A program made the translations under genes and the position numbers. This document shows, piece by piece, positions 12,380-35,804 of a stretch of 40,528 nt of DNA (within the stretch, counting starts at the first letter, position 1; each line of letters opens with the position of its first letter). Location: assembly GCA_008369845.1 (NCBI GenBank), contig MRSU01006691.1, forward strand, positions 1 to 40,528. The letters run 5' to 3'. Source of the DNA: Trichomonas gallinae (taxonomy: Eukaryota). Under the pieces are notes generated by a model. The model was not told the origin of the DNA. It did no database searches and saw nothing but the letters and a program-made list of their open reading frames with translations.

Positions 12380-12430
12380 TAATTGTTTACAAGCTATGTA
12401 TCATTCTAGAGTAAATTAATGCATGTATAT

Positions 12431-16111: not shown

Positions 16112-16576
16112 ATTATTTGACAGTTTACGTGTCAATAAATTTCAGCACTTAACCAAAAATTTACTTGTCAAATTTCGATATTTACATGACAGTTTATATG
16201 TCAGTATTATCTTATCTTTACATGGCAAACTGGTTATTTACATGTCAAATATACTCGAATTGAATAATTTATATGTCAAAATTACTAATTTCCATGATTA
16301 GCAAATTAGAAGTAGGAAGTGAGAAGATTCTTACATGAATTTTCCCCATATTTGGAATGTATGTAGGTATATCCTTTATGATAAATATTATAGAAAATCT
16401 TAAGCAATTTGAGCAAGTTACATGTTTATTTTTAAATTGTAATATGATTTTGAAATTTTTATTTGTCAAATTATTGATATTGAAATGTTTATTTGTCAAA
16501 TTGTAAGATAATTTACGTGGCATATAATTTATTAATTGAATATTTTACATGTCAATTATTATTGATTTACGTGTCA
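16112..16576 (+). repeat. Cluster A of the co-oriented 11-bp motif TTTAYDTGDCA (12 exact matches)
   Basis: Matches start at 16124, 16160, 16181, 16193, 16217, 16237, 16268, 16458, 16488, 16512, 16544 and 16566, all on the + strand, with a near match at 16112. Confidence 0.9.
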
Positions 16577-16592
16577 ATTGTCAGAATCGAAT

Positions 16593-18671
16593 ATGGATGA
16601 CAAAGCATTGCATCAGTCGATTTCACAGATAAACATGGATCAGGAATTGTCTTTAGGAAGTACTTGGGTGACTTTCGAGGCAAACTCTGGTCAAATCAAT
16701 ATATTTCTTGTTTTAACTGAATTCAACTTATATTTATTCAACAAAGACGACAAAAACGACAAAATGAACATATTTGGTGTGTACTCATTGTTTGATATCA
16801 AAACAATTGAAATTCCTAATATGTCGAATTTTTCAATTTCATTTGCAGATAAATACTTGAAATTTTCTGGTGAGGACATTGCGTTCTTTCCAGATTTAAT
16901 ACATAAACAGCTTTTGCTTCTTCTATTACCCATCGAAATGCCAACAATTAAAGGAAAAGTTTCAAAACCAGGTACAAACATGAAACACAATGTAAAATAT
17001 ATGTCTGTTTTACTCAGACTTCGTGGCAAGCTGAAATTAATTAACAGATATCCGCCTCAACAATTTATCGACGATTTACAAGCATATCTTAAGACAGAAC
17101 CGTCAGAATTCGTTGTAAATCAGTTCAAAGATATTGATAATTACATAGATTCTATTCTAGAAGCGGTTGAAATTGAGCCAATGATTATTAGTTTAAATTT
17201 CACAGGGAAACAAGTATTAAATCACTGGAATAATCTTTCGGTTTTCATCAGAAATAACACTACTATACAGAAAATTGTGATTTCGGAGGAAATCAACAGA
17301 GGATTTATCGAATTTTGCGCATCACTCTCCAAAAACTCAAATTCGAAGCTGAAAAGAATAGAATTCAAGAATGTTTCTTTTTCACCAGAACATATTGAAG
17401 CATTAGACAAAGCAACGCAAAAGCATCCATTTTTATATTTAATGTTCGATTCTTGCAATTTTACTGATTCAGCACAAAAGCTTACCAATCTTATAGTCAA
17501 TAACACTGAGTCAAGCAGCAATTTGATATCATTGCATATGTCTTCGATAAATCTCAGCAAAATTGACATTGGGAGCTCAATTCGCAATCTTCAGTATGTA
17601 TCATTGCGTGGATGTTGCATAGAAATCTCATCATTATTTGAAAATTTCAAAAATACGAAAATAATTTTTGCTGATTTTTCAAACAATCGATGTTCAGTTC
17701 CTTTGAGTGATTCTATGTCATTTCCATCAACATTAGTTCATCTATGTTTGAATGACATCGCTTGGTCAGGCTCCAGTCTTGCTATGATTTTTAATTCAGC
17801 TGGAAATTGTAAACTTCATATGAGTCTATCAGTTGCTAATGCTCAGATGCTTGAAGACGACTGGATATCATTCTTCAATCTCATTGAATTAACACCAAGT
17901 TCCAATTTCCATTCTATCTGCTGGCATAGAAATCCAATCCACTACAAGCTTTGCCGATTTTTCGCAAGATTAAAGCACCTCAAATTCCTTTCACTCTCTG
18001 GATGTAAGATTCCTTCTGATGGTTGCGTACAAAAATTAATTTCTAGTTCTAAATCTCTCAGTTTCATTGATATTCATGGAACAAACGATTCAAAACTCGG
18101 TAATGAAATCATATCTATACTTAGATCGTTCAAAAATTCAAAAGTTGAATCGATTGATATTTCTAACAATAATATTCCTTCTCTTGCTGTTCCAATGATA
18201 GCTGACCTAATAATGTCTCCTACAAAACAATTTATCATATGTAATTTAGAAAATCTCGATATGACAAATTATTCATCAATATTAAATAATCAAGAATTAA
18301 AATCCAAGACGTTGACGACGACGTTTAATGACTACGCATATGGAAGCTTCGTGCAGAGCACAACTCAGTTATTTGTAATTGAAGATTCTGAATTCATTGT
18401 TCAATATTGTAAGAACGACACATCATTGCCGATCCCAGATGAGCCAGAATACCAAATTGTGAAGGGTGCATTCTTGTTCGGAAAAGATTTCTGGGATATC
18501 AACAAAATTGAGCACTTGAAGAAGAAATTCTCAAACTCAGAACGCCAAGTTATATCTTGGGACTTGAATCTCTCGGAATTGCGGATGATTGACACTAATT
18601 CCTTCATCCAAGAACTAGAAAACAACTTCGATTTAGAAACATTAGGAAAGAAACTTAGAAACTGCTGGTGA
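16593..18671 (+). CDS. Leucine-rich repeat (RI-like) protein with a possible N-terminal PH-like domain (CARMIL-like architecture)
   Basis: LRR segments such as LKFLSLSGC, VESIDISNNNI and LQYVSLRGC. Beta-rich N-terminus (IFLVLTEFNLYLF...FDIKTIEI). First ATG at 16593. Confidence 0.75.
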   Translation: MDDKALHQSISQINMDQELSLGSTWVTFEANSGQINIFLVLTEFNLYLFNKDDKNDKMNIFGVYSLFDIKTIEIPNMSNFSISFADKYLKFSGEDIAFFPDLIHKQLLLLLLPIEMPTIKGKVSKPGTNMKHNVKYMSVLLRLRGKLKLINRYPPQQFIDDLQAYLKTEPSEFVVNQFKDIDNYIDSILEAVEIEPMIISLNFTGKQVLNHWNNLSVFIRNNTTIQKIVISEEINRGFIEFCASLSKNSNSKLKRIEFKNVSFSPEHIEALDKATQKHPFLYLMFDSCNFTDSAQKLTNLIVNNTESSSNLISLHMSSINLSKIDIGSSIRNLQYVSLRGCCIEISSLFENFKNTKIIFADFSNNRCSVPLSDSMSFPSTLVHLCLNDIAWSGSSLAMIFNSAGNCKLHMSLSVANAQMLEDDWISFFNLIELTPSSNFHSICWHRNPIHYKLCRFFARLKHLKFLSLSGCKIPSDGCVQKLISSSKSLSFIDIHGTNDSKLGNEIISILRSFKNSKVESIDISNNNIPSLAVPMIADLIMSPTKQFIICNLENLDMTNYSSILNNQELKSKTLTTTFNDYAYGSFVQSTTQLFVIEDSEFIVQYCKNDTSLPIPDEPEYQIVKGAFLFGKDFWDINKIEHLKKKFSNSERQVISWDLNLSELRMIDTNSFIQELENNFDLETLGKKLRNCW

Positions 18672-18896
18672 AATATTTATACTATTTTTGTTTGTTTGTT
18701 CGTAAAATATTCATTTGTAAAATAATACGATGATACAAAGAGTTAATTTTCTATGTAATCATCTGTTGAGATTAATTATAAAGAAAACTTATAACATGAT
18801 GATAAATTTCAGAGTTTGAATGTTTTTGATAAATTTCATATGCAATGCTTGACTATCATCGTTTATATGATGTCGAAACACTTTTGCCTAATGTCT

Positions 18897-19346
18897 TTAT
18901 ATAATTGTTTTTATTGAAGCCAATTCTTCGTAATCATATATTGGAGGACGGTGATACTCGTCAGCTTCATTGACTTTTGAACCATGCTCTACCAGTTTTG
19001 CTTCATTGACTTCAACACCATTTCCCCATGCAGCATCAAATAATGGAGTTCTGTCATCTTCGTCTTTTGCTTCAAGATCTGCACCAAGCTCTACCAATTT
19101 TGTAATGGCTTCAACACTATTACGCTTTGCATCTTCAAATAATAGAGTTCGTAAATGCTCGTCAGCTGCATTGACATTTGCACCAAATTCAATCAACTTT
19201 GCGATGGCTTCAGCATTATCTTTACTTGCAGCTTCCATTAATGGAGTTTTGCCATAATCGTTAGGTCTTTCGATATCTAAACCAAGTTCTACTAATTTTG
19301 CAATGAGATCAACATTATTTGCGCTTGCAGCTTTAAATAATAGCAT
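18897..19346 (-). pseudogene. Short or truncated ankyrin-repeat ORF (about 4 repeats), likely a relic
   Basis: GKTPLMEAASKDNAEAIAKLIEFGANVN repeats. The ATG falls inside a repeat, and the upstream frame reads NIEDIDSR back to a TAA. The last repeat is degenerate. Confidence 0.65.
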
Positions 19347-19454
19347 TCTACTATCAATGTCCTCTATATTTTAAATATCGATATTCAAAGCTAAACTTAA
19401 ACTGTAATTAATAAGTTCTTGGATTTGAAAATCAATTCTATCTAATGACAAAAC

Positions 19455-19595
19455 AGTCATGTAAATGTTTTTCTGTCATTGTAATGTTTTTGAATCATTT
19501 TGCCATGTAGATTGTTTTCTGTAAGTGTAAAGTATATACATAGTTTTGTCATGTAAATATTTTTCTGTCAGTGTAAAGTCTTTACATTATGTCAT
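19455..19595 (-). repeat. Cluster B: three degenerate 46-bp tandem units, each with two copies of the TTTAYDTGDCA-like motif on the minus strand
   Basis: agtcatgtaaa 19455, tgccatgtaga 19501 and tgtcatgtaaa 19547 (period 46). tgtcattgtaa 19474, tgtaagtgtaaa 19520 and tgtcagtgtaaa 19566 (period 46). Confidence 0.85.
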
Positions 19596-19729
19596 TTTTC
19601 TTTAACGTACAAAAAATAATTCTTTCAAATTCGAAAATTTTTAGTTTTTTCGCCATAATATAGTCAAAGGGTTCCATTTCTCCAATAAAAACTACTTTAC
19701 ATTTCACCTCATAAAAAATATAAAAAAAA

Positions 19730-22700
19730 ATGAGCAATCAGCCGCCGAAGATGGGGATAAGAGCCACCCCATCTGAGAGCAGCTTCAACCTGGCGATGCG
19801 TGATGAGATCAACGACAAGCTTCAGGACACTTTTGACGACTTAATCGAAGATAAAATTCAGGCGATTAAGCTTAAGAAACAAAACGAAGAATTAACGAAG
19901 TCCCTAGATAAATATAAAACCATCAACCATAAAATAAAAGCTGAACTCGTCGAAAAAAACAAAAATTTAAATCTTGTTTTAAATCTTTTCGATATTCCTG
20001 ATCAAATTTCACTCGAAGATCTCGAAAAACTCGTTAAGTCAATGAAAATTCACAGCGATTTGTACAGTTTGATTGCTAAAGAATTTGGTGACAAGCCTAC
20101 ACTGAACAAAGACTATGCACCAATAATTGCCAAGCTTTTAGTGCTGTCTGCCTCGTTAAAAGACAGCCTGAAAACTGATGAAGGTGAAATTCCAGGAACG
20201 GTGAATAAATTATTAAATGATAACAAACTACTGCTCAGACAGCTTAGTGAGATCTCTCTTGCTCTTGGATGCAAGCAGTCAAATGCTGCTCTCGCAGCTG
20301 TTAAGAGTTTAATCCAATCTAAAGTAGAAATCGAAGCTTTAAATCAACAATTATCGAATCAGCTTAAAGATATGACCGTCAATTCAACAAAAAGCATATC
20401 TTCTCTCCAAAAAGAACGAGATTCCTTGAAATTACTCAAAAATTCGATTCTAACAGACTTAAACTTAGATTCAGAAAATTTAATCTTGCCAACTGTCAAA
20501 GATTTACTCCAAAAGCAGCAACTTTTGAGGTCAGCGTCGGCCAAACTCGGATGCTCTTACGATGATTTTGATAACAGATTTGCAGAAATTGTTAAAGATT
20601 ATCAATCAATGAAAAATCGTCAAAATGAGATCATTAAATCACTTGGAACGAGCCCACAACAGCTTGTATCGTCCGTTGAAGACATTTTGAAGCAAAAACA
20701 AAAACTTGAAGAAATCTCGGCGAAACTTAAAGAAGACATCAGCAAATCGAGTAGCAAGCTATCTACAGTTCAGGACGAACTCAATCAGCGCCTTAATATC
20801 ATTAAAAACTTACAAAACGAAAGAGAGCAATTATCTAACGAAATTAAACGTTTAAATGAAGAAGTAGTTGAAACAAACAGACAAAAACAAGAAACAGAAA
20901 CAATGTTGAATACTACTAAAGCAAAATTACAGCAAAATGAAAACTTGAAACAATTAATGCAGTCAGAATACGATTCTTCGCGTCAGCATGCTAATGATCT
21001 CGTTGAGAAGCTTACAGCTGATATAACAATGAAGTCTGATGAAGTCGGCAAGCTGAAATCACAAGTATCTGAATTCCAAACTAAACTTGCTCAATCTGAA
21101 GCATCAAGACAAACATTGCAAACGACTCAAGAAGCCACAAGAAAGAGAACAAATGAGCTTATTGACAATTTGCACAAAGATATCAATGCAAAAGCAGATG
21201 AAATTTCGAAACTTCAAGATAAAACATCAAACTTGCAGCGTGAAAACGAAGTAAATCAGGTCAAACTGCAGCAATCTGACATTCAAATCAAATCTCTCAC
21301 AGAAGATTTAGTTTCTACTAAAAAGAAACTAAACGAAACAAACGCGAAGATGCAAACAGATTTAAACGCTAAAGACAAGGAGATATCAAGACTCCAGAGT
21401 CAGATAGAATCAATGACTAAATCCAATGAAAATCTGAATAATCAAATAAATAATCTTGAATCTAGGACAAAACTATACGAAAAGGATGCTAAAGCATCAC
21501 AAGAAACACAGAAAGAACTCACCAACAAGCTTTCCAGCGAAATTGCGCAGAAAACTGAAGCAATTACTAAACTACAAGTTGAATTAACTGATTCCAAGCG
21601 TAAACAAGCCGATGCAGCTAATTTACTGGAGCAAACATCAAACCAGCTCAAGATCTTGCAGTCCGAATACGAAGCAGCGAAGAAGATTCACGCGCAAGCA
21701 ATAAAAGACTTGCAAACAGAAAGCAGCGAAAAAACTCAAGAAATCGGTCGATTGATGAACGATTCAGCTTCTCTTAAGCGTGCGCAGATAGCCTTAGAGA
21801 ACGCTAAACAGTCATTGCAGGCTGAATACGATGCATTCCAGCAGCATAATGGTGAAATCATCGAATCATTGAAGCAAGAAAATTCTGCGAAAGTTTTGGA
21901 AATCGCGAAACTTAAATCTGAGAACGAAGGACTAAAGAGAGTCAACGAAGACAACGGATTGAAGATCAAAGATGATGAGTCTGCAATTAATTTGTTGAAA
22001 TCAGATCTTGAAAACACAGAACAAAGAAATTCCGAGATAATTCAGAAATTAACAGATGAAATTGGTGAAAAGAACAAAGAAATCATTAATCTCACAACAA
22101 ACATCTCCGACTTATCACGTCAGAACACAGAGCTCAATGCACAGATTGCCACACTCAAGAACCAGATGTCACAGAGCGAAGCAATGCATAAAATGCTTCA
22201 GAACGAATTCGACTCGTCAAAAGAAGGAACTCAAGCAATTTTGGCGAAAGCTATTGAAGAGAGCTCAGAGAAGACGAGAGAAATCAACGAGTTGAAGATA
22301 GAACTGTCGACAACGAATGGTAAAAACGCTCAGTTGGCTGCTACAATCGAATCAATGAATTCGCAAATGTCAATTTTAACAAACGAAAATGACAAACTTA
22401 AGAAAGACAACAGTTTATCGTCAGAACAAAACGAAATCAATGTCAAAGAAATTAACGATTTGAAAGAGAAACTAAGCAGAGCTGCATCAGAAAACGTTGT
22501 CAAAGACTCAATGCTGCAAGAAAACGAGAAAATAATCAATGACTTGCAAAACAATTTGTCTAAGAAAGAACTGGCAATCAAACAATTGCAAGACCAGATG
22601 AGAAAGAACGAAAGCGAAATAGCAAGCATGAAGGCAACGCTCGAAGACCAGAAAGCAGCTGCCAATCATGAGATAATGGTCCTCAAAAACGCATGTGACG

Positions 22701-25700
22701 TCAAGGATCAACAAATTGCATCATTGAATGAACACGTTTCGACAATAAACGAGAGTTCTTTGGGTTTGGTATCAGAGCAAATCGCAGAGAAGCAGAAACT
22801 CGCTGGCCAAGTCGCTTTGATGACGGAAGACATCGCGAAAATCACTGCGCAGTTGCAGGTTGAAAAGAACGACAAAGCCAAGCTTTCGACAGCATTATCT
22901 GACAAGCAGGCGCAAATTGAGTCTCTGCAGAATATCATTGACGAGCAGAACTCCAATATACAGAAGAACGCGAAGAAAATTGCTGAATTGCAGGCTGACA
23001 TTGGAAAGAACAAGATATCTCATGAAAATGAAATCTCTGAAATGAAACTAAATCACGCGAAAGAAATTTCTGACATTAAAGCTGAACACATCAAAGCTAG
23101 AACAGATCTTGACTCAAGTTCAAAGAGTGCAATAGAACTACTCAAGAGTGAGCACAAGAAACAGCTCGAAGCTCAAAATGAAGCAGCTCAGCAAAAACTT
23201 GACAAACTCGTTGAACAGCAGCAACAAACTTTGGCTGAAAAACAGCAGGAAATCTCAGATCTCAAAGAAAAATACCAGCATGAAATCGCTGACATTCAGA
23301 TGGCTTTTCGCAATGAGATTGATACCCTCAAATCAGAAAACGCCAAAGAAATCAACGAATTAAATGACAAGCATCAAAAAGAAATTTCCGATCTACAGAT
23401 TTCTTCTAGAAATGAAATCAACGAACTCAAGAAGGCTAAAATCAAAGAAATTGCTGAGATCAATGATAACCACCACCAAGAGTTGATCGCTTTGCAGGAA
23501 TCATCGAGGAATGAATACAATAACCTGCAGAATGCCAAGATTAAAGAAATCGGTGAAATTAATGACAAACATTCGAACGAACTCAAAGAAATTCAACTCA
23601 ATCTCAGAAATGAAATCGATGAAATGCAAGAACAACATGCTAAAGAAATTTCTGACTTGAATGATAAGCATCTACAAGAAGTCACAGCGCTTCAGGCTAA
23701 TCACAGAAAGGAATACAATGCTTTGCAATCATCGAAAGCAAGAGAAATTGCTGACTTGAAGGAAAAGCATCACCAAGAAATTCTGGATATGCAAAACAAC
23801 ATGAGAGAAGAGATTAGTAACATGAATGCTGCTAAACAGAAAGAGATTGCTGAACTCAAACAGAAGCATCGCGGTGAAATAGAAGCACAGCAAAATACAT
23901 CGCGAGCAGAAAATGAAAGAAATGAGGCTGAAATGCAGAAACTCAAGGAGAAGCATCTCAAAGAAATCTCAGATATTCAAAACTCTTCGAGGAGCGAAAT
24001 CGATGACATCAAGGCTGCAAAGCTTAAAGAGATCAGTGACTTGAAGGAGAAGCATAGATTGGACGTTGAATCAATACAAATCGCAAACAGAGCAGAAATC
24101 GATTCAATAACAACAGCAAATGCAAAAGAAATTCAAGATTTGAACGAGAAGCATCATAGAGAAATTCTTGCGATGCAAGCTTCAAGCAGGGCTGAGCTTG
24201 ATAACATCCAAAAGACAAAACAAGCTGAAATTAATTCATTGATGATGCAGAGACAAAAAGAAACAAATGAAAGTGAAAAAATCAAGAATGATCTTACGAA
24301 CAAAGCCACCCAGCTTGAGATTGAGAACTCAACATTGAAGTCCAAGATGCAGTCAATATCTCAACAAATCAGAGACACATCAAGAGAACTCTCTGAAATG
24401 CAGAATGAATTCGATAACAGGTCAAAGATTTACGACGATAGTTTGGCAATTTTAAGAAACTCATTAGAAAAGATCAGAATCATTCTTGGTATGCCGCAAT
24501 CATCTACACCACAAGAAATCGCTGAATCCGTTGATAATCTCATGAAGAACTTCGCCAAGCATCAGCTTGAAGTCTGCAGAGCCCTCGAAATTCCTAAGCG
24601 TTCTCCACTCAAAGAAATTCGCGGAAGAATCAGCGAACTTAATTCATGCGCGAACTCCGTCAGAGATATTTCAACAAGTTTCGGCATCTCTGGATCTCCG
24701 CGTGCTATAAGTGATCATATCAGATCTCTTCAAGGAGTTTGCAAGAAACTGGAAAGTGAAGTAAGAAAACGTGACACTCAACTCTCAAGCATTGCTATTT
24801 CTGTTGGTGCTCGCGATCCAGCAGATATCGAGGAACAAATTCACACCATTGTCGACGAAAATGAGTCATTAAGGACCGAGATAGATGTGAGCCAGATGAA
24901 CAATAAATCGATTTGCGCTACACTGGGAGTGGAAGATGATACAAATGTCGACAGATTCATCGACAAAGTCATCAGAGAAAAGAACTCGATGGCAAGATCA
25001 GCAAAGAAACTCGCTGACTTGGTTGGCGTCGAATATGATGAGAATGATCAAAACAACAGCTCCGCAGTTGTCTACCAAAGAGTTGCTGCGATGCAGAGAA
25101 CTCAATCACAACTTGAAAAGATTCTCGGAACAGACCAAATCGAAGATACAGTCGATGAATTGCACAAACAAAGCGAAGAACTTAATTCGATATTCAAGCA
25201 GAATGATGAGGAAGGCAGTGTTGTTTACGCGGCAAGTTCTCAGAAGGAAGCTGTTTCTCAGCTTTTGTCTAAGAATCAAAATCTTTCAACACAAATCAAC
25301 GAAATCGGAAACCTCATGAATGTTCAGTCATTCGGTGATATTAAACGTGGCATTCAGTTCTTGATCGCAGAGAACGAAAGATTGTCTCAATTAGAAGCAG
25401 ATAGCGCTAAACTCAGACAAGAAATCGCAGACATAATAGATGAGCCAGGAATTTTGGATACAACGAACAATGAAGCTGTTTTAGCTGCAGTAAGAGAAAT
25501 CAAATCTTCTCAATTAGCAGTCAAAGAATCATTGGATGGACAGAACAAACTGCTTTCTAAGGCTCTTGGAGTCAAAGGAAGGACACCTGAGTCACTCGCG
25601 AAAGCAATCATTGAGCTAAGAAAGCGCGAAAAGGAAACGAAAGATTTGCTGCAGAGGCATAATGAGATGACATTTGGAATCGCTAAGATGCTTGGAATTC

Positions 25701-26449
25701 AATATGAAAACGACAAGCAAACTTACGGAGAAATCGAATTAGCAGTTGGCAAATTATTGAGCAGCACAAACATCCTCAAAGACAAGATAGGAGAAGCAGT
25801 TGGCCTCGCTCCATCATTGAGAGAAGCTCCATCAATTGCAAATGAAGTCAGAAAACTCAATGAAGCTGCAAAAGACGCTGATTCTCTTCGCAAAGTTGTA
25901 GGAGAGCTCGAAAAGCACAAACAAGAGCTTCAGAGGATCGCTTTCAGACCGAAGAAGAGCTCATCAGCTCAAACAGATCCACTGAGAGATGAAATGTCGC
26001 CAATTATTCATCAACAAGCAGAAGAACTCAGAGAAGCGAGAAACTTAATTCACAAACAAGAAAACGAATACGCGAGATCAGTTGAAGAAGTCACAATACT
26101 CAAGAACGCCTTGTCTTCTATATACGATGCCATAGGAAGTGGCGTTGGAACTCCAAGAGAAGCTGTTTACGAAATAGGAAGACTTAGGATGTCCCAGAAA
26201 GATTTGTCGAAGACAGTCTTGGAATACCAGAAGGTGCCAATTCCCGCCTCGGCGCTTTCTGAGTATCAAAAAGCACAGATGGCTCATTTAGTGGCACAGT
26301 CAGACAAATTATACAGACAAACAACTAATTTGAAAGAGCAGGTTACTCCAGGAAAAACACCAAAGACAGCTTACAGCATAGCTACAAGAGGAATGATGGA
26401 TACTCCTAGGAGATCACCATTAAGTCAGAGAAAGTATCAAGATTTTTAA
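19730..26449 (+). CDS. Giant coiled-coil structural protein (2239 aa)
   Basis: Uninterrupted ORF, K/E/Q/L-rich and helical throughout, with internal 53-aa and 33-aa (3x11) periodicities. Confidence 0.92.
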   Translation: MSNQPPKMGIRATPSESSFNLAMRDEINDKLQDTFDDLIEDKIQAIKLKKQNEELTKSLDKYKTINHKIKAELVEKNKNLNLVLNLFDIPDQISLEDLEKLVKSMKIHSDLYSLIAKEFGDKPTLNKDYAPIIAKLLVLSASLKDSLKTDEGEIPGTVNKLLNDNKLLLRQLSEISLALGCKQSNAALAAVKSLIQSKVEIEALNQQLSNQLKDMTVNSTKSISSLQKERDSLKLLKNSILTDLNLDSENLILPTVKDLLQKQQLLRSASAKLGCSYDDFDNRFAEIVKDYQSMKNRQNEIIKSLGTSPQQLVSSVEDILKQKQKLEEISAKLKEDISKSSSKLSTVQDELNQRLNIIKNLQNEREQLSNEIKRLNEEVVETNRQKQETETMLNTTKAKLQQNENLKQLMQSEYDSSRQHANDLVEKLTADITMKSDEVGKLKSQVSEFQTKLAQSEASRQTLQTTQEATRKRTNELIDNLHKDINAKADEISKLQDKTSNLQRENEVNQVKLQQSDIQIKSLTEDLVSTKKKLNETNAKMQTDLNAKDKEISRLQSQIESMTKSNENLNNQINNLESRTKLYEKDAKASQETQKELTNKLSSEIAQKTEAITKLQVELTDSKRKQADAANLLEQTSNQLKILQSEYEAAKKIHAQAIKDLQTESSEKTQEIGRLMNDSASLKRAQIALENAKQSLQAEYDAFQQHNGEIIESLKQENSAKVLEIAKLKSENEGLKRVNEDNGLKIKDDESAINLLKSDLENTEQRNSEIIQKLTDEIGEKNKEIINLTTNISDLSRQNTELNAQIATLKNQMSQSEAMHKMLQNEFDSSKEGTQAILAKAIEESSEKTREINELKIELSTTNGKNAQLAATIESMNSQMSILTNENDKLKKDNSLSSEQNEINVKEINDLKEKLSRAASENVVKDSMLQENEKIINDLQNNLSKKELAIKQLQDQMRKNESEIASMKATLEDQKAAANHEIMVLKNACDVKDQQIASLNEHVSTINESSLGLVSEQIAEKQKLAGQVALMTEDIAKITAQLQVEKNDKAKLSTALSDKQAQIESLQNIIDEQNSNIQKNAKKIAELQADIGKNKISHENEISEMKLNHAKEISDIKAEHIKARTDLDSSSKSAIELLKSEHKKQLEAQNEAAQQKLDKLVEQQQQTLAEKQQEISDLKEKYQHEIADIQMAFRNEIDTLKSENAKEINELNDKHQKEISDLQISSRNEINELKKAKIKEIAEINDNHHQELIALQESSRNEYNNLQNAKIKEIGEINDKHSNELKEIQLNLRNEIDEMQEQHAKEISDLNDKHLQEVTALQANHRKEYNALQSSKAREIADLKEKHHQEILDMQNNMREEISNMNAAKQKEIAELKQKHRGEIEAQQNTSRAENERNEAEMQKLKEKHLKEISDIQNSSRSEIDDIKAAKLKEISDLKEKHRLDVESIQIANRAEIDSITTANAKEIQDLNEKHHREILAMQASSRAELDNIQKTKQAEINSLMMQRQKETNESEKIKNDLTNKATQLEIENSTLKSKMQSISQQIRDTSRELSEMQNEFDNRSKIYDDSLAILRNSLEKIRIILGMPQSSTPQEIAESVDNLMKNFAKHQLEVCRALEIPKRSPLKEIRGRISELNSCANSVRDISTSFGISGSPRAISDHIRSLQGVCKKLESEVRKRDTQLSSIAISVGARDPADIEEQIHTIVDENESLRTEIDVSQMNNKSICATLGVEDDTNVDRFIDKVIREKNSMARSAKKLADLVGVEYDENDQNNSSAVVYQRVAAMQRTQSQLEKILGTDQIEDTVDELHKQSEELNSIFKQNDEEGSVVYAASSQKEAVSQLLSKNQNLSTQINEIGNLMNVQSFGDIKRGIQFLIAENERLSQLEADSAKLRQEIADIIDEPGILDTTNNEAVLAAVREIKSSQLAVKESLDGQNKLLSKALGVKGRTPESLAKAIIELRKREKETKDLLQRHNEMTFGIAKMLGIQYENDKQTYGEIELAVGKLLSSTNILKDKIGEAVGLAPSLREAPSIANEVRKLNEAAKDADSLRKVVGELEKHKQELQRIAFRPKKSSSAQTDPLRDEMSPIIHQQAEELREARNLIHKQENEYARSVEEVTILKNALSSIYDAIGSGVGTPREAVYEIGRLRMSQKDLSKTVLEYQKVPIPASALSEYQKAQMAHLVAQSDKLYRQTTNLKEQVTPGKTPKTAYSIATRGMMDTPRRSPLSQRKYQDF

Positions 26450-26822: not shown

Positions 26823-27452
26823 TTAGCATCTGCATCCCTGTTTGCTTGTTGTTTCACTCGGTTTATTATCAAGTTCACCAATTGTAGCTGGGGCGTTGGA
26901 AATCGATATGTCTCCTGTTTTAATGCCATCGTAGATAGCTTTTGCGACTTGGTAGAAACATTCGTTAATATTGCTTCCGGTTTTTGCAGAAGATTCGATA
27001 TATTGAAGGCTGCGACCTTCTGAAAATTTCCGAATTTCATCTTGTGTGATGGTTCTGGCGTCTGTCAAATCGGATTTGTTGCCAACTAAAATCATATGTG
27101 CTTTTGGATGGCAATACTGGCTCACATCTGAGATCCATTCTTCTAATTTTTCGAAAGAAACGTGGTCTGTTAGAGAAAAAACGAGTAACACGCCGATTGC
27201 ATTTCGATAATATGCTTTACCGACAGATCTGTATTTTTCTTGGCCCGCTGTATCCCAAATTTGAAGCTTGACTTGGTTTCCGTCAATATCGAAGAGCTTG
27301 GTCATGAACTCCACACCAATTGTTGTTTCTGGATTCGAAATGAAGTCTCCACGACAAAGTCTGCGAACTATTGATGTTTTTCCGACGTTGCCGTTTCCAA
27401 CGAGAAGGAATTTGAAAGTGAGACGAGCCTGTTGCTGCTGCTTCGAAGACAT
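26823..27452 (-). CDS. Rab family small GTPase (Rab2/4/11/14-like group)
   Basis: GNGNVGKT P-loop, TTIGVEF, WDTAGQE, YYRNA, GNKSD, ESSAK and a C-terminal CRC prenylation motif. Confidence 0.96.
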   Translation of the reverse strand: MSSKQQQQARLTFKFLLVGNGNVGKTSIVRRLCRGDFISNPETTIGVEFMTKLFDIDGNQVKLQIWDTAGQEKYRSVGKAYYRNAIGVLLVFSLTDHVSFEKLEEWISDVSQYCHPKAHMILVGNKSDLTDARTITQDEIRKFSEGRSLQYIESSAKTGSNINECFYQVAKAIYDGIKTGDISISNAPATIGELDNKPSETTSKQGCRC

Positions 27453-27599
27453 ACTTCGTAAATAGGCTAAAATAGGGGCCGAAAAAAATAAACGGGGATT
27501 TAATTGGGAAAATTCTGTGAAATTCTCAAAATATGATTCACTAACATTCAGGGATGAAAATTTTGAGGAAATTTCTTAATTTATTGTTAATAGGAAATT

Positions 27600-27776
27600 T
27601 GTCGTGTAATGTGTCGTATTTCGGAAATAATTTGTCATGTAATATATTATATTATATATTATATTATATATTATATTTTATATTATATTTTGAGAATAAT
27701 TTGACGTGTAATGTGTCATATTTCATAAGTATTTGCCATGTAATGAGAATAATTTTAATTAAATTTGTCATGTAAA
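27600..27776 (-). repeat. Cluster C of the TTTAYDTGDCA-like motif on the minus strand, interrupted by a TATAT-type microsatellite
   Basis: tgtcgtgtaat 27600, tgtcatgtaat 27633, tgacgtgtaat 27702, tgccatgtaat 27734 and tgtcatgtaaa 27766. A/T-only run at about 27643-27690. Confidence 0.8.
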
Positions 27777-28064
27777 GTTGACTTATAAGGTTAATCTATA
27801 ATCATGAAAATTGATTAAATTTAAAGACTAACAAACATCATAGACAGAGATATTTGGTTCTATCGAAGCGTATTATCATTCAAATTGTTCAATTTTGGAA
27901 ATCAAATTATCTTATTACTGATATCGTTTTTATGATGAAATACTTGTTATAATTTCATATTTGTGATGTAACGCAGAATATTATAATATAAACAAATCAA
28001 TCTAATTCTAATATATCAGCATTAGTTATAAAGATAATGTGAATTTGATTACTTTACATAATTT

Positions 28065-29441: not shown

Positions 29442-29885
29442 AATTTTTTTTTCTAAAATTACGAAATCACGAAATGTCTGATTTTATTTTAGAAACAGTC
29501 ATATTTTTGGCTAAACACTGGAACATTTTGACTTTTGTATTCAATTCGAATAGATATAAAATATCAAAATTTCAAAATCAATTTTTAAACTAATCATTGG
29601 TTGCCAATAAACTCTATAGAAACTTCACATCAAATTCTTAAAATTGAAATATATTATTTAAGCATTTGATTTCTCAAAAATAAAAAAATTTTATTTTTAC
29701 TGCATCTTATCTTGGATAACAGATATGAAGTAATATAATGTAGCTTTTAAAGTAATCGATGAGTAAATTATTATCCTCAATCATATCATTTCAAATTTCA
29801 AGATATGTTATAAGCTATTTCTTTGCTGAATATGATATATGTTGTAGATTAGTGGATTTATTATCCAACAAAAAACAATTTAGTA

Positions 29886-30518
29886 TTATTGAGCCTGATT
29901 AATTTGATTAAATTTCTGTTTCAATTCTTCTTGTTCTTTTTCTAATTCAACAATCTTATTCTTAGCATCTTCGATATTTTTAATGATATCCTGGGCCTTT
30001 TCTTCGAGTTTGGTTTTCTCTGCTTCATCTTTAGCCTGTTCTATTTGATCAAAAACGTTTAAAGCAACTTGTTCGTATTGTTTAATGATTAGATTCTGGT
30101 TTGCTATGTCTGTACCAATGTTCTTCATTCTCTGTTGAGAAATCAATTGGAATCTTTCCTCTTCTTCCTTCTTTTGGGTAGTTTCTATTTCTTTCTTGAC
30201 TTCTGTAGCTATCTTTTTCACGAATTCCATATCAGCAGCGTCTGCTAAGTGAGATTCAGATTGAGCTGGATTTCTATGGTATTTGATAAATACAAATCTA
30301 TTGTTTTGATAAGCTTCTGGTGAATGGTATGCTTTTGTAGCCTCTTCTACTGAAGAATATCCTATTGTTGCCACTTTCTGATTGCACCAAATACTTTTAA
30401 TGTGGCCATAACGCTTAAAATGCTTGAATAACAGCGGAATTTTGTTTATATTTTCTGGTATGTTGTACACAAAAAGTGTATCAGCGGGTTTCTCTTGTTG
30501 ACGTGGAGGTCGAGACAT
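29886..30518 (-). CDS. RRM-domain RNA-binding protein (RBM26/27-like RRM) with a C-terminal coiled coil
   Basis: TLFVYNIPENINKIPLLFKHFKRYG...ATIGYSSVEEATKAYHSPEAYQNNRFVFIKYH. Likely start MSRPPRQ at 30518; an alternative in-frame ATG lies at 30551. Confidence 0.85.
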   Translation of the reverse strand: MSRPPRQQEKPADTLFVYNIPENINKIPLLFKHFKRYGHIKSIWCNQKVATIGYSSVEEATKAYHSPEAYQNNRFVFIKYHRNPAQSESHLADAADMEFVKKIATEVKKEIETTQKKEEEERFQLISQQRMKNIGTDIANQNLIIKQYEQVALNVFDQIEQAKDEAEKTKLEEKAQDIIKNIEDAKNKIVELEKEQEELKQKFNQINQAQ

Positions 30519-30990
30519 GGAACAATTTAAAATACTAAAATTTTCTGGCATGTAAATTTTTGTAAAAGCAAATTGTCGCTTTTTGACTTTGATTAAAAGT
30601 GACAATTCATGAATTTTTGTTTTTGTGATTTTTTTAACTCTTCTCCTTGTTTTTGTATAAAAAGCATTGTATCATGCTAATGCCACTTAAGATATAACTA
30701 ATACTACTTAATTAAAAGAATTATTTATCGAAGAAAATTTTTATTCTTTCTTGATATCTCAAGAAAATCATTTGCTAAATATGACTTCATAGTTATCTCT
30801 CTGAATTACCATACAAAATGAGTCTAAATGTTTCTAATGCACTAATTCAAGATCAATTTTTCTAAAATAAAGCTGAAATAAGAATGAGAATAAATTCATG
30901 CCAAAAACATTTTCCATGAAGATTGCACTATCTTCATAGATGGATAATATTAAAGATTTTCTTAAGATATATTAAGATATATTTTTATAG

Positions 30991-31180
30991 ATCAAATTCT
31001 TCATATCCGACCTATATGATCATATGTGATTTAATATAACCTTGTAAATTCATTTATCAAAATATATAAGAATATAGTAGAACTAAATTGGTACTTTTAA
31101 TCATCAAATTGAGCATATTAGACTCATATGATCATATGTGGATACTAATAAACTTGCAAAATCATTTATCAAAATATATG
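30991..31180. repeat. Degenerate ~78-bp direct repeat (offset 112 bp) carrying the palindrome (C)ATATGATCATAT(G)
   Basis: 30991-31068 and 31103-31180 share atcaaatt, atatgatcatatgtg and tcatttatcaaaatatat blocks. Confidence 0.8.
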
Positions 31181-31321
31181 ATTACAGTAAAAAAAACAAA
31201 AATGAAAAAATTAAATAATGATTATTTTGAGTATTTTGTGTAATATAATAGCTGTATATATGATATATATGTTATTTTTGGTGGACTTGGCCCCGTATCT
31301 TAAGCAGATGATTTTTCGATA

Positions 31322-31329
31322 AAAGTGAC
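31322..31329 (+). promoter_or_regulatory. AAAGTGAC element upstream of the bromodomain gene (also at 34607-34614 and 30596-30603)
   Basis: The exact 8-mer occurs within about 30-80 bp of three start codons. As I recall, it matches the M2 upstream motif reported for Trichomonas vaginalis. Confidence 0.5.
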
Positions 31330-31357
31330 GGCGCTAATTAATTGCTGGCAATCTTTG

Positions 31358-32242
31358 ATGGGTCTCACAACAGTCCAGAAGCAGCGATGCTACGCCATTA
31401 TCAAGCAGATGAGACGCTACAAGATATCACAGATATTCGACAGACCAGTTGACCCAGAAAAAGACAAATGTCCGGATTATTTCAAAGTTATCACGAAACC
31501 AATGGCTTTACAAACAGTTGAGTACAACTTGAAAGAGGATAAGTACGCAACTGTCGATGATTTCAAGGCTGACATGAATTTGATATGGGAAAATGGTGAA
31601 AAATTCAACGCTGGATCTTGGGTTGAATTGTGTGCTACCCATCTCAAGTTAATATGTCAGAAACTTGTTTCACACTTCACAGATGACTCAAGCCAAGATT
31701 GGCTTCAAGAATTCAAAATTATCGATGCTAAATTACATAAAATATACAAGGTTGTTACTGATCCTAATGGAACATATCCAAAGGCAACTCACAAACATCA
31801 TGATTCATCCTCTAAAGAGAAAGTCGTTGTCAAGGAAGAAAAGCCTGATAATAGGCCATCACGTTCACAGCAAGAGGATCGCCCACAACGTAAGCAAGCT
31901 GAACCACCTCAGCAACAAGCGCCTAGACATAAAGAAAAGCATTCCGAAAAACCAGCACCACCGCCACCGCCTCCTGAGAAGGTTACGGCTCCGCCACCGC
32001 CACAGCCGGTTGAACCTAAGCCTAAACCGGCTGCTCAGCCAAAAGATTTTGTTGTTACTAAAGATCTCAAAGATCAGATCTTCAATTATTGGGAAAATGC
32101 TAGTGAAGAAGATCAATATGAGATTAATAAGATTATACGCGATTGTCTTCACCTTAGTGATGATTCTGATCAAGAAATTAACATTGATGAGTTGAATCCG
32201 GATTGTATTTACAAAATTGCCCAGTTCTTCCATCTCGTTTAA
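31358..32242 (+). CDS. Bromodomain protein with a Pro-rich linker and a C-terminal ET-like domain (BET/GTE-like)
   Basis: IFDRPVDPEKDKCPDYFKVITKPMALQTVEYNL...FKADMNLIWENGEKFN (conserved Asn), PPPPPP linker, and tail EINIDELNPDCIYKI. ATG at 31358. Confidence 0.92.
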   Translation: MGLTTVQKQRCYAIIKQMRRYKISQIFDRPVDPEKDKCPDYFKVITKPMALQTVEYNLKEDKYATVDDFKADMNLIWENGEKFNAGSWVELCATHLKLICQKLVSHFTDDSSQDWLQEFKIIDAKLHKIYKVVTDPNGTYPKATHKHHDSSSKEKVVVKEEKPDNRPSRSQQEDRPQRKQAEPPQQQAPRHKEKHSEKPAPPPPPPEKVTAPPPPQPVEPKPKPAAQPKDFVVTKDLKDQIFNYWENASEEDQYEINKIIRDCLHLSDDSDQEINIDELNPDCIYKIAQFFHLV

Positions 32243-32577
32243 TTTCAAATATATTTGTCCTGCAATAAATTTCGAATTTTTAAAATTTTCACAAAATTTC
32301 AAATATCATGAATAAAATCACTATATATGCACCAATAATAGCAAATTTCATATATAAATCCTTTGAATTAATAAAATAAAAATATGAAAATTATAAAAAA
32401 AGAAAAGTTATTAAAAGTATTGCAAATATGGTTAATGTTGGTGAAAAGTTTTGCTGATTATAAGTAAAAATTTGATGATAATAAAGATATTTCGATTTTT
32501 TATAATAAATATGTAAATTATCGGCCATTTTTAGGACCGATGACAAATAAAATAATCCGTAATTATGTATATTGATC

Positions 32578-33591
32578 TTATTGGACGAAGGTGATGAAGT
32601 AAAGGTATGCGAAAGTACAGTTAACGATTTGGCAGTCGACTCTGTCGAGGAGGCCACCATGTCCTGGAATGAGGTTGGAAAAGTCCTTGATTCCGACGCT
32701 TCTCTTGAATCCAGATGCGAAGAATCCGCCGAATGGAGCAATCAAGCTTGCGAACAAAGCAATGACGCAGGCATGGATGTATGCTGGAAGGATGGTGAAA
32801 GATTTTCCGAAAACTGTATATTTTGTTGGGATAAACTCCTTTGGTGTTTCGCATTCAACGTGGAAGTCGAATGGCTTTGTGTGTCTGCAGTACATGTATG
32901 GGAACTTAGAGAAGAGGTAAGTGATGCCGATGAATGTGAGGGGAGTCAAGATTGCAGCACCGGTGAATCCTTCAACTGTCTTCTTCGGGCTCAACTTGAT
33001 AAGCTGATGGCGTCCGAAGAATCTGCCGCAGAAGTAGGCTGATGTATCGTTCATGCAAACGCAGAATAATGGAACGAAGAACCAATATAATGAAGTATCA
33101 GCGAATTTTGTGTATAAGTTGCATGGAACAGCGATGATAATGGCGCCGATGAATGAGTATGTGAACTTCTTGTATGCGTATTGGTCGTTTTCTGGTGTTA
33201 AGCCAGTAACGAATAAAATTAATGCGAACATAACGATAGCGAAGCAAACGATGGCGTGGTACTGAGCAATGACGGAATCAGCGATGAAATAGTGTAATAC
33301 TGTCTTTCCAGAAAGAGCATAAGACATAGCAAACAATAAAAGATAAGGGAAAATTGTGATTCTCTTTCCAATTGTAGCCTCTTTAGCTGGATCTATGGAT
33401 AAATTGAGTAATTCACGGAATGCGAAGAACTGAATGATGAGAAGTTCAGCGAATAATGGATATCTTCCAGCGCACATGATGAAAATCTCGATAATAACAA
33501 GAACACATGAGGAAACTGTGCGAACAACTAAGTCGCCCCACTTAGCGGACTTGGCTGGTGCATGCTCACGCTTGGCCTCTTTTCCAGGCAT
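32578..33591 (-). CDS. CDS1: Phosphatidate cytidylyltransferase (CDP-diacylglycerol synthase)
   Basis: NDTSAYFCGRFFG, LSPKKTVEGF and SGFKRSVGIKDFSNLIPGHGGLLDRVDC signature, with multiple transmembrane helices. ATG at 33591. Confidence 0.97.
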   Translation of the reverse strand: MPGKEAKREHAPAKSAKWGDLVVRTVSSCVLVIIEIFIMCAGRYPLFAELLIIQFFAFRELLNLSIDPAKEATIGKRITIFPYLLLFAMSYALSGKTVLHYFIADSVIAQYHAIVCFAIVMFALILFVTGLTPENDQYAYKKFTYSFIGAIIIAVPCNLYTKFADTSLYWFFVPLFCVCMNDTSAYFCGRFFGRHQLIKLSPKKTVEGFTGAAILTPLTFIGITYLFSKFPYMYCRHTKPFDFHVECETPKEFIPTKYTVFGKSFTILPAYIHACVIALFASLIAPFGGFFASGFKRSVGIKDFSNLIPGHGGLLDRVDCQIVNCTFAYLYFITFVQ

Positions 33592-33592
33592 T

Positions 33593-33608
33593 GAAGTGAA
33601 AAAGTGAT
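33593..33608 (-). promoter_or_regulatory. Tandem initiator (Inr)-like TCACT elements directly upstream of the CDP-diacylglycerol synthase ATG
   Basis: The minus strand reads aaTCACTtttTCACTtcaATG, matching the trichomonad TCAYT initiator in its usual position. Confidence 0.65.
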
Positions 33609-34683
33609 TCAAACACCTCCCTCGATAATTTTTTCAGACCCTAAATTTCAAAACTTTGTGAAATTTCAAAAACATGCTTTTTATGATAAATAGTACAGAT
33701 TTATTATAATTTAAACGTTCGTTGACTCAATTTTGATCGGAAAGAAAAATGCGATCATGTAGTCCAATCACATATAGGATAAACTATGCATTGTATCTAA
33801 AATCTATTTATAAGAGATACAGCTCTCAACGTTTTGATTACTAGCAAACCAAAAATATCATTGATTAATTGTCCATCAAGGATTGGAGAAGATAATATTT
33901 ATATTGATTTCAATCTGTTTACAGTTAAATCAAAGCTTAATTCTTCTAATTATATTCGAAAAAAAAATTATCAAAAACAAGCCTAATCAGCTATAATACA
34001 AAATGTTAAAATGCAATAAAATCGATATATGATAATGTGATTGCAATTCATGAAAATATTTTGGTAAAATCACCATCAAATTTGAATATTATGGGATATC
34101 ATACACTTTACAAAGTAGAGTTTGTTATTTATAGATGGGTTATGCATAAATTTGAGTTTAGAATGAAATCTAAACCTAGCTTTAGATTGATTTATTAAAA
34201 ATGGCAGAAAATTTTGATATTTGTTTTTCAATATATTTATCATTAATATATCTAATACTATCTAAAAACCTTGAAATTTTGATGATATAGAATTTTATTA
34301 ATTTTGACATGTAAAGCTAAATTTTAGCAATCAAGATTTTTAATTTCCATTGGATATAGTATCCTTGATGGGAACTATAATAAGAAGCTTAATATAAAGA
34401 TTCAATTCCAATGTTTTGTTGTGGGCAACTTTTTTCAGAAAAAATTCCAACGAGGATAAATTTCGACAAAAAGAAAATTAGTGATAAAATAAGATATAGA
34501 AACAAAATAACAAATAAAAATAGAAAAATGAGTTTTGTAAAAGTGCCGTTTGTAAATAAAAGTGGCAAAATTTCACAAAAAGCAATAAAACGTGACAAAT
34601 TTATAAAAAGTGACAAATATCGGTCTACCTTTTCGTAAGAGAAAAAAAAAATTATTATCGTTTTCTATAACTTTTAAAAAAAA

Positions 34684-35289
34684 ATGAGTTATAAAGTTGT
34701 TCTTCTCGGCGAAGGTCGTGTCGGCAAATCCTCCATCGGAAACAAGTGGCACTCCGGAACGTTTGACTCCCAGAGGCGTTCGACCGTGGCAGCTGCATTT
34801 TTCCAGAAGTCTGTCCTCTGCCAAGGCAAAAATGTAGATATTCAGCTCTGGGATACAGCTGGACAGGAAGAATACCATTCTCTCACACCAATTTACTACA
34901 AAGACGCTCAAGCGGCACTTCTCGTATATTCCGTCGTTGATTCTGCAAGTTTCGACAGAATGATGCAGTGGAAGAACGAGCTCGTTATGACACGTGGCGA
35001 AAATATTAAAATTATCATCGCGGCGAACAAGATAGATATGGTTCAGCAGAGAGTTATCACGCCACAGCAAGGCATTGATTTCGCAAGCAAAGTCGGTTGC
35101 CAAATCTTTGAAGTTTCCGCTAAGACAGGAGAAGGTATTGACATGCTTTTCCAGGCATTAGCGAAAACATTACTTGAAATTCCACAGAAAAAGACTGGAC
35201 CAACAAGAGGCGGCAAGGTCGGCCTTCAAGTTATCAATGGAAACAACGATCAAGCGCAAGAAAACCAGTCTAAAGGCGGATGTTGCTAA
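34684..35289 (+). CDS. RAB21: Rab21-like small GTPase
   Basis: GEGRVGKS P-loop, STVAAAF effector loop, WDTAGQEEYHSLTPIYYK, NKID, EVSAK and C-terminal GGCC. Confidence 0.9.
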   Translation: MSYKVVLLGEGRVGKSSIGNKWHSGTFDSQRRSTVAAAFFQKSVLCQGKNVDIQLWDTAGQEEYHSLTPIYYKDAQAALLVYSVVDSASFDRMMQWKNELVMTRGENIKIIIAANKIDMVQQRVITPQQGIDFASKVGCQIFEVSAKTGEGIDMLFQALAKTLLEIPQKKTGPTRGGKVGLQVINGNNDQAQENQSKGGCC

Positions 35290-35641
35290 AAATGATTATA
35301 GATCTTTTTATACCAAAAGACTTTCCATAAAATTATATTCACAAAATAATAAACAGGGTATTTTATTTTTGTACAATTACTTATCTCTAATTTTTTCGAG
35401 GAGCCAATATTTTTTCAATTACAAAACCTGGTTATATCCTTCTCGTATTTTATATTTCAATCATAAATCAACCAGAAAATATATATTTCCTATATTGGTC
35501 GTACTCCGACAGTTGAAAAAATCATCAATTTTCGTAAAACAAATAAAATCACAAATTTCACCGCAAAATCATTTTATTTTCATATATACACCATGTATTT
35601 TTAAAAGACAATGAAAAATAAGAGATCAGAGAATAATAAAT

Positions 35642-35804
35642 TTTACATGGCATTTTAATACAAAACAATGAGTTTATTTGTCAAGATTTCGATTTATATG
35701 GCAAAATTATAATTTATATGGCAAAATTTAGATTTTATTTGTCAAAAAATTTGCTTATATGACAGAATTATGATTTATATGGCAAACAAATGATTTATAT
35801 GTCA
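35642..35804 (+). repeat. Cluster D: eight co-oriented TTTAYDTGDCA motifs at 20-21 bp period
   Basis: Starts at 35642, 35673, 35693, 35713, 35734, 35754 (one mismatch), 35774 and 35794. Spacings are 31, 20, 20, 21, 20, 20 and 20. Confidence 0.92.

Follow-up and report, generated by a model that had tools for sequence, protein, structure and literature searches.

Single-orientation arrays of an 11-bp word between genes of Trichomonas gallinae as candidate homotypic binding-site clusters

What are the short co-oriented repeats that recur between the genes of a trichomonad? We analyzed a window of 40,528 nucleotides from Trichomonas gallinae (the whole stretch of DNA under study), in which a preliminary description had pointed out several intergenic arrays of one motif, TTTAYDTGDCA. 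The window proteins are 56-91% identical to their T. vaginalis G3 counterparts, and the host is a trichomonad. The gene order around the arrays is not kept in T. vaginalis. No earlier description of these arrays was found in literature searches.

The exact motif matched 23 times in the window, against a mean of 1.07 and a maximum of 4 in 100 shuffles. All 23 matches were intergenic, where Markov models of intergenic DNA (order 2-4) led to an expectation of 0.6-1.0, and no other pattern of its shape was as over-represented in intergenic DNA (23 versus 0.8). The 32,375 coding bases contained no exact match, the expected number being too low for calling depletion. A profile scan with a score cutoff of at least 9 resulted in 35 sites, 31 intergenic and four within ORFs. 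Four clusters, each in a single orientation, comprised 13, 3, 5, and 8 sites at 16, 19.5, 27.6, and 35.6 kb; their orientations along the window are +, -, -, and +, and their gene contexts are divergent, divergent, tandem, and convergent, respectively (Table 1). The generalized word is (T/A)TTAY-(A/G/T)-TG-(T/A/G)-CA, with position 6 mostly A (22 of 32 sites). The half-sites TTAY and TGDCA are separated by one base in 28 intergenic sites, and spacers of 0, 2, 3, 4, or 5 bases accounted for 0-3 sites.

The preliminary description is borne out in its motif, coordinates, orientations, unit lengths, and gene contexts. Its range of 5-12 copies per region suits the other regions but not those at 19.5 kb, with three full sites and two carrying an extra base, and at 16 kb, with 13. 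Likewise, the claimed recurrence every ~3-8 kb is valid from 16 to 36 kb, but the profile scan left 1-16 kb and 36-40.5 kb without a cluster; all four arrays lie within 20 kb, and the remaining 20 kb of the window has none.

Table 1. Genes, arrays, and single sites in the window (positions counted from its first base).
Feature	Position	Strand	Description
Tyrosine-phosphatase family gene (Y_phosphatase2; Oca1/Siw14-type)	15463..16077	-	flanks array 1a
Region 1	16112-16576	+	13 sites in the profile scan; two sub-clusters 190 bp apart
Array 1a	16112..16278	+	8 sites; spacings 12,36,21,12,24,20,31
Array 1b	16458..16576	+	5 sites; spacings 30,24,32,22
LRR-family protein gene, 692 aa	16593..18671	+	56% identical to T. 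vaginalis G3 EAY08850
Ankyrin-repeat gene	18897..19460	-	flanks array 2
Array 2	19455..19576	-	three 46-bp units, one full site each (19455, 19501, 19547)
2239-aa coiled-coil-like protein gene	19730..26449	+	no Pfam family
Rab-type small GTPase gene	26823..27452	-	flanks array 3
Array 3	27600..27776	-	5 sites; spacings 33,69,32,32
Single variant TTTACATGCCA	30546..30556	-	among the 4 ORF matches of the profile scan
Weak single site TTTATTTGTCA	32541..32551	-	score 9.3; just beyond cytidylyltransferase gene stop
Single site TTTACATGTCA	34305..34315	-	perfect match; divergent intergenic region
M2-like sites AAAAGTGGCA, AAACGTGACA, AAAAGTGACA	34558..34615	+	co-oriented, small array
Rab-type small GTPase gene	34684..35289	+	
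Array 4	35642..35804	+	8 sites; spacings 31,20,20,21,20,20,20
671-aa protein gene	35854..37869	-	no Pfam family; T. vaginalis G3 relative EAY14344

Arrays 1a, 1b, 2, and 3 are close to start codons, and three of the four arrays lie within 17-175 bp of one. Array 1a starts 35 bp upstream of the phosphatase ATG on the minus strand, 16 bp separate the end of array 1b from the LRR-family gene's ATG, and array 3, which has an AT microsatellite in its 69-bp spacing, is located 148 bp upstream of the Rab gene. Array 2 harbors two more sites (19474 and 19566) with one extra spacer base. The opening ATG of the ankyrin-repeat frame falls within site 19455, and an in-frame stop follows after 29 codons; this gene is likely decayed. 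Array 4 is flanked by the 3' ends of two convergent genes and lies 49 bp beyond the stop of the 671-aa gene. Since it is downstream of both neighbors, it cannot be the core promoter of either, and it contains no tRNA, no Rfam match, and no gene-sized ORF of its own. Among the single sites, the 30546 variant overlaps the first ATG of a 221-aa ORF, or lies ~30 bp upstream if the second ATG is the start, and the 32541 site may be a chance occurrence. The orientation of sites relative to the nearest gene is inconsistent, array 1a and site 34305 being opposed to theirs.

The conservation of core and spacer was compared by taking the columns fixed in array 1 as the core and submitting arrays 2-4 to a hypergeometric test. 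In array 4, all seven core columns were invariant across seven contiguous 20-bp units (p=1e-4; excluding the eighth site, at a distance of 31 bp), with 8 invariant columns of 20 and spacers 48% identical. Six of seven core columns were invariant in array 3 (p=0.01) and five of seven in array 2 (p=0.04). Spacer identity in arrays 2-4 was 0.41-0.48 versus 0.81-1.00 for the cores; in array 1a it was 88 of 252 pairs, about the background of 0.32. Between clusters, the nine flanking bases on each side matched at 0.33-0.50 (background 0.32) and the fixed columns at 0.85-1.0, a partly circular measure. The spacers are unrelated between clusters, and the unit lengths differ from locus to locus. As a control, we took an ordinary intergenic duplication in the window, which retained 75 of 109 columns, evenly along its whole length.

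The spacings lean towards whole helical turns, which is suggestive (p 0.002-0.015). Under a de-duplication of our own choosing, on which the test depends, 11 of 16 spacings were at most 1.5 bp from a multiple of 10.5 (binomial p=0.002), as were 9 of 14 without the 12-bp spacings (p=0.007), and a cosine test of 10.5-bp phasing gave p=0.015. For all 24 spacings, the vector length was larger for periods of 11.5-12 than for 10.5.

With moderate confidence, we read the arrays as homotypic binding-site clusters for one candidate DNA-binding protein, which would control the neighboring genes as an upstream regulator or a general regulatory factor. The motif copies lie in non-coding DNA far above chance, and the putative contact bases are conserved over the spacers, as expected of such clusters. 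Each array would have grown through local tandem duplication of a site and its flank (periods 12, 20, 30, 32-33, and 46), after which selection would have retained the contact bases. A spacing of about two or three helical turns would place the bound copies on one DNA face and favor cooperative binding. High occupancy may then maintain an open intergenic gap of 400-600 bp and set the transcription of adjacent genes at arrays 1-3 and the single sites, and array 4 may work as a roadblock or barrier between convergent genes. Yeast Reb1/Rap1-type factors open gaps, set transcription, and act as roadblocks in this manner. A TALE-type homeodomain protein or a bZIP protein with unequal half-sites are candidate leads; annotated bZIP proteins are present in T. 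vaginalis. The preliminary description had proposed multimeric platforms for one protein instead of one copied transposon or satellite, and the core-over-spacer conservation, the unrelated spacers, and the lack of flanking target-site or inverted repeats argue for that proposal. Its lean to origins, insulators, and loop anchors gained no support in any test run.

Such roles in chromosome maintenance, in which ORC/Cdc6-like or structural proteins would bind sequence-defined replication origins, fork barriers, or loop anchors without a main tie to neighboring transcription, are unlikely. Fork barriers typically show polar arrays of co-oriented sites, like those seen here; moreover, the arrays occupy all three gene contexts, convergent included, and the 5' TTTAYRT coincides with the beginning of the yeast ACS. 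However, to our knowledge, yeast origins are not made of 8-13 co-oriented copies as found here, and arrays 1a, 1b, 2, and 3 adjoin start codons. The origin reading is weak because not one site fits the ACS, the arrays are densely packed in a single direction, and the first 16 kb are free of them; the concentration of all four in half of the window likewise speaks against it. As to published work, the ORC is described as divergent and patchy in metamonads, and as divergent and partial in T. vaginalis (PMC8516963). Loops are also reported in T. vaginalis, although the loop-associated 6mA motif given there, CAATACCC, is unrelated to the word (10.1101/603894). A trichomonad chromosome-organizing element, in which one protein would polymerize head-to-tail on phased sites and mark origins or gene-block boundaries, with the T. 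vaginalis motif M2 and the word forming one binding code, is distinctly unlikely. The boundaries of this reading would separate the short co-regulated gene blocks described for T. vaginalis; the ORC of this lineage is divergent and partial.

Subterminal regions of hAT, CACTA, and Mutator elements carry co-oriented short sites with variable spacers, a layout that the arrays resemble. The arrays could then be subterminal transposase-binding repeats, left in intergenic gaps by a degenerate DNA transposon or a Foldback/MITE family; arrays 1 (+) and 2 (-) do point towards each other, and DNA transposons are described as numerous in trichomonad genomes (PMC12289875). We regard this as very improbable. 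Each region has a single orientation without an inverted partner, no flanking 8-12 bp direct repeat (with at least two G/C) was present in any of the seven spans tested, and these yielded only one 9-bp inverted match. In addition, the clusters have no flank in common, and their flanking genes are ordinary. No array was found within the first ~400 bases of each element of a T. vaginalis transposon library, and TvMULE ends are described as 20-38 bp long, without mention of subterminal repeats (PMC2725143). Functionless minisatellites around a duplication-prone core, homogenized or regenerated by slippage or gene conversion, would explain the real tandem periodicity at each locus, and we give them equally little credence. 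Minisatellites built on this word also occur in metagenome DNA, in 14 groups of unrelated loci, but these loci were picked by the motif pattern itself, without a shuffled-pattern control, and their spacers are conserved (identity 0.63-1.00 in 13 loci from 13 of the 14 groups). Copy number also appears to differ in a close relative, whose gene call reads through array 1b with four of five cores kept, one unit fewer, and changed spacers, a pattern that also speaks for the binding-site reading; the contrast of ~1 change in 16 core codons with 5 in 19 spacer codons, by our count, is at the protein level and not significant. Neutral decay should strike core and spacer equally, as in the evenly decayed control duplicate. 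The core stays fixed while the spacers drift, so neutral minisatellite decay is not an explanation, and four independent loci share one word with a strict half-site spacer. Least probable of all is an RNA-level element, that is, UTR or non-coding-RNA repeats read by an RNA-binding protein. The single orientation per cluster and the position of array 4 directly behind a 3' end fit it; the reverse strand has UAAA, reported as the T. vaginalis polyadenylation signal (PMC9222396), and thousands of lncRNAs are reported in that species (PMC4223856). Nevertheless, the arrays do not keep one orientation towards the adjacent gene, searches for Rfam families and tRNAs came back empty, and RNA folding was no better than shuffles (z 0.26 for array 4; -0.39 in a second fold test). 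Most sites are also farther from the ATG than the 9-20 nt distances given for Inr (PMC9222396).

Known trichomonad gene control consists mainly of core-promoter words (Inr, M3, and M5) and a few Myb sites, and little is defined of upstream or boundary elements. A multi-copy word of high information is a ready bait for isolating a new regulator. It would help in studying how genes separated by 300-600 bp come under separate control while gene order is reshuffled from species to species. The arrays also offer a way to re-examine the unexplained M2 motif. Should they prove to be origins or boundaries, they would add a rare example, outside budding yeast, of such elements being defined by sequence.

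The closest known trichomonad motif is M2, AAAGTGAC, described in T. vaginalis as non-functional (PMC4223856) and with AAAGTGTC as a variant (PMC9222396). The preliminary description listed it as unrelated and missed that the 3' half GTG[A/G/T]C(A), variable center included, is common to both. The 5' half is TTTAY in the word and AAAA in M2 and differs in all array sites, so the M2 consensus does not occur in them. The word also has position 6 mostly A, and the arrays are longer and extend further from the ATG. In the window, the three exact M2 matches are all intergenic, and the M2-like sites 70-125 bp upstream of the plus-strand Rab gene have the motif's GTG[AG]CA half.

The budding-yeast ARS consensus is WTTTAYRTTTW, with membership defined by a 10/11 or 11/11 match. 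The likeness noted in the preliminary description holds for the first 7-8 bases, Y and R degeneracy included. It ends there: GDCA replaces the 3' TTTW in every site, all 32 sites have 2-6 mismatches to the 11-bp consensus, the arrays are dense and one-directional, and the four perfect ACS matches of the window fall outside them.

TALE homeodomain sites include the MEIS/TGIF TGACA, the Iroquois SELEX word WACATGACAW, and the MATalpha2 half-site TTACATG. The TGACA/TGTCA core that had been claimed is present in 23 of 32 sites, but eight have TGGCA and one TGCCA. Three sites match this Iroquois word, and 12 of the 14 MATalpha2 half-site matches in the window are motif sites, whereas 14 of 32 sites have ATAT, ATTT, or ACTT centers. 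Among bZIP sites with an ACGT core are the plant ABRE (YACGTGKC) and the yeast Hac1 UPRE-2 (TACGTG); TTAY is the PAR half-site. The word can be read as TTAY and RTGKCA, unequal half-sites around a central YR, and ACGTG[GT]C is exact in three sites. An ACGT-core bZIP site proper was rejected, as the core occurs in only 3 of 32 sites and ACAT (13), ATAT (7), and ATTT (6) dominate.

Homotypic transcription-factor clusters and the sites of yeast Reb1, Rap1, and Abf1 and fission-yeast Sap1 likewise consist of a repeated short asymmetric word in intergenic DNA. As with the arrays, these sites are found near promoters and also between convergent genes, with the core conserved over the spacers. Unlike the yeast factor sites, the arrays hold as many as 13 copies, all pointing one way and spaced by 12-46 bp; they were visibly built by tandem duplication, the unit differing from locus to locus, and their word is unrelated to the yeast motifs.

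In the window, the 11-bp motif TTTAYDTGDCA had 23 exact matches against 1.07 expected, all 23 intergenic and none in 32,375 coding bases. Markov models of intergenic DNA predicted 0.6-1.0 matches, with a maximum of 4 (200 runs each), and the motif ranked first among all same-shape patterns. A profile scan resulted in 35 sites, 31 of them intergenic, which formed four clusters, each of uniform orientation, plus singles (table below). The preliminary description, which reported repeated co-oriented clusters in divergent, tandem, and convergent gene contexts, was confirmed; its claim of a cluster every ~3-8 kb failed for the first 16 kb and the last 4.7 kb, where the profile scan placed no cluster. 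The window has a GC content of 33.6% and is gene-dense, almost all genes being long single ORFs, with BspA-type LRR, ankyrin, Rab, bromodomain, phosphatase, and cytidylyltransferase families.

Arrays, flanking genes, and other features of the window
Feature	Positions	Strand	Profile-scan sites	Gene context or remark
Array 1	16112-16576	+	13	divergent; sub-arrays 1a (16112-16278) and 1b (16458-16576)
Array 2	19455-19576	-	3	divergent
Array 3	27600-27776	-	5	tandem
Array 4	35642-35804	+	8	convergent
Array-1 flanking genes	15463-16077, 16593-18671			
M2-like sites	34558-34615	+		three, co-oriented, upstream of Rab gene; share GTG[AG]CA with the motif, A/G centre
M2 words	30596; 31322			single
Control duplicate	30980-31200			two ~110-bp copies, divergent intergenic region; each with near-palindrome CATATGATCATATG, which may be another binding site
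Duplicated non-coding unit	12460-12620			~50-100 bp; TTTGACA in both copies
Ankyrin gene	18897-19460	-		in-frame stop 29 codons after ATG; ATG within motif site 19455; likely in decay
M12B/reprolysin-like metallopeptidase gene	10400-12380	+		split into several ORF pieces
ORF related to P0144	13076-14950	+		ends 23 residues short of this 95%-identical relative, whose tail is encoded directly beyond the stop

The TTA, G, and C columns were invariant in 30-31 of the 31 intergenic profile sites, and the variable positions were 5 (C/T, 18/13), 6 (A/T/G, 21/7/3), and 9 (T/A/G, 15/8/8); the flanking bases carried little information. A single base separated the half-sites TTAY and TGDCA in 28 intergenic sites; gaps of 0, 2, 3, 4, or 5 bases occurred in 0-3 each. 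For the constraint analysis, the 7 columns invariant in array 1 were applied to contiguous in-register units of the other arrays. In array 4, where 7 of the 8 sites were taken in and 8 of the 20 columns were invariant overall, all 7 of these core columns were unchanged (p=1e-4); array 3 kept 6 of them (p=0.01) and array 2 kept 5 (p=0.04). Inside arrays 2-4, the spacers had an identity of 0.41-0.48, in agreement with the earlier claim of a conserved core with diverging linkers, whereas the non-coding control duplicate kept 75 of 109 columns spread along its length. The sequence anatomy of the arrays and the constraint on their core are shown directly. Two proteins of a close relative start with 36 residues corresponding to translated array 1b; against the window frames they imply a net loss of ~35 bases that removes site 16512, spacings of 30, 21, and 22, several spacer changes, and one in-site change compatible with the T/C position, this protein-level inference missing any silent change and falling short of significance on its own.

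In array 1, Tandem Repeats Finder reported two periods, 12 and 30; it assigned array 2 a period of 46 and array 4 one of 20, and array 3 has a period of 32-33. Because the periods differ and spacer identity between clusters (0.33-0.50) is near background (0.32), the word was probably amplified separately at each locus, and the earlier statement that this is not one copied satellite or transposon was supported. The 24 site spacings were 12 (two), 20 (six), 21 (two), 22, 24 (two), 30, 31 (two), 32 (three), 33, 36, 46 (two), and 69, with none of 13-19 or 25-29. When we collapsed repeated units, 16 spacings remained, of which 11 fell no more than 1.5 bp from an integer multiple of 10.5 (p=0.002), and a cosine test gave p=0.015; with all 24, periods of 11.5-12 gave a larger vector length than 10.5, but not at phase zero. 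Helical phasing of the sites is suggestive.

The arrays are a real, constrained cis-element of a familiar kind. In the text searched it is apparently undescribed; an earlier mention is possible in Smith 2011, which reportedly defines the motifs M1-M5, or in motif-logo figures. We somewhat favor, and infer, a model in which one putative DNA-binding protein would occupy the clusters cooperatively, keep the short intergenic gap open, and set how the adjacent gene is transcribed; where two genes converge, the bound array would act as a roadblock or barrier.

A replication origin or boundary seems unlikely, and one defined by sequence slightly more so: the proposed likeness to the yeast ARS core stops short of a full match, since all 32 sites deviate from the ARS consensus WTTTAYRTTTW at 2-6 positions. 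Remnants of transposon ends are improbable; over the 7 array spans tested there was one short inverted match and no flanking direct repeat, and no array occurred within the leading ~400 bases of each T. vaginalis transposon entry, the part available in PMC12289875. An RNA element is very improbable, with no Rfam family above gathering, no tRNA found, and folding no better than shuffles.

A neutral minisatellite core is likewise improbable. Metagenome minisatellites with the same word had a spacer identity of 0.63-1.00 (13 loci), a figure taken only from neighbours exactly one period apart, with at most 8 units per locus, which favours high values. The stricter motif pattern used there gave 39 stretches in 37 loci and 14 flank-defined groups, consisting of gene-poor minisatellite DNA and one bacterial contig; judged by ORF content, none was trichomonad, and their flanks had no BLASTN match to the window. 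In these unrelated groups (L003-L039, periods 13-34), the word varies at those positions that also vary in the window, a likeness that, for pattern-selected loci without a control, is possibly meaningless. One locus (L004:249-384) has six 25-bp repeats with the word adjoining an mnmE gene in a bacterial contig of 60% GC. The three-copy pattern matched two loci in viral contigs, both coding repeats in giant-virus-like contigs. Protein-guided searches gave no match in viral contigs and, in genome contigs, one unrelated intron-rich contig lacking the motif and no trichomonad DNA.

Relatives of window proteins in T. vaginalis G3 showed 56% (LRR protein), 82%, and 91% (phosphatase, by alignment) identity, which marks the source as a trichomonad distinct from T. 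vaginalis G3; apart from these, other related proteins reach 94-100%. Of the T. vaginalis G3 relatives of four window genes, KAI5490851, KAI5487227, and KAI5489345 lie on the same 27.7 Mb chromosome, >1,500 accession numbers apart, and a fourth, KAI5517369, on another chromosome. The relatives were adjacent neither at the array-1 junction nor at an array-free junction; therefore, the arrays cannot be called breakpoint-specific, and syntenic comparison with T. vaginalis is precluded.

Regarding known motifs, the TALE core TGACA/TGTCA proposed earlier was present in 23 of 32 sites and absent from the other 9, and ACGT occurred in 3 of 32. TALE and bZIP proteins are leads as candidate binders. 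An Iroquois word and TALE genes in Trichomonas were unconfirmed in the literature searched, including the available parts of PMC12702339 and PMC6219170, respectively, and supplement rows of PMC12289875 list annotated bZIP proteins of T. vaginalis. The exact-word literature search gave no trichomonad paper by title among the matches listed; the literature covered also included excerpts of PMC11586516, PMC4736632, PMC2725143, PMC4450334, 10.1101/603894, PMC9222396, and PMC8516963. ATAC studies describe, in the text available, CGGCGG, GTGT-containing, and ATTSAAT motifs (PMC12539116, PMC12802312); the GTGT-containing one, whose logo is published as a figure only, might overlap the motif word. The canonical Inr (TCAYW) was absent within 70 bases upstream of the ATG in both array-1 flanking genes. 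The known T. vaginalis motif M2, described as non-functional in the accessible part of PMC4223856, occurs as the exact word AAAGTGAC three times in the window, always intergenic, and its 3' half is common to the array motif.
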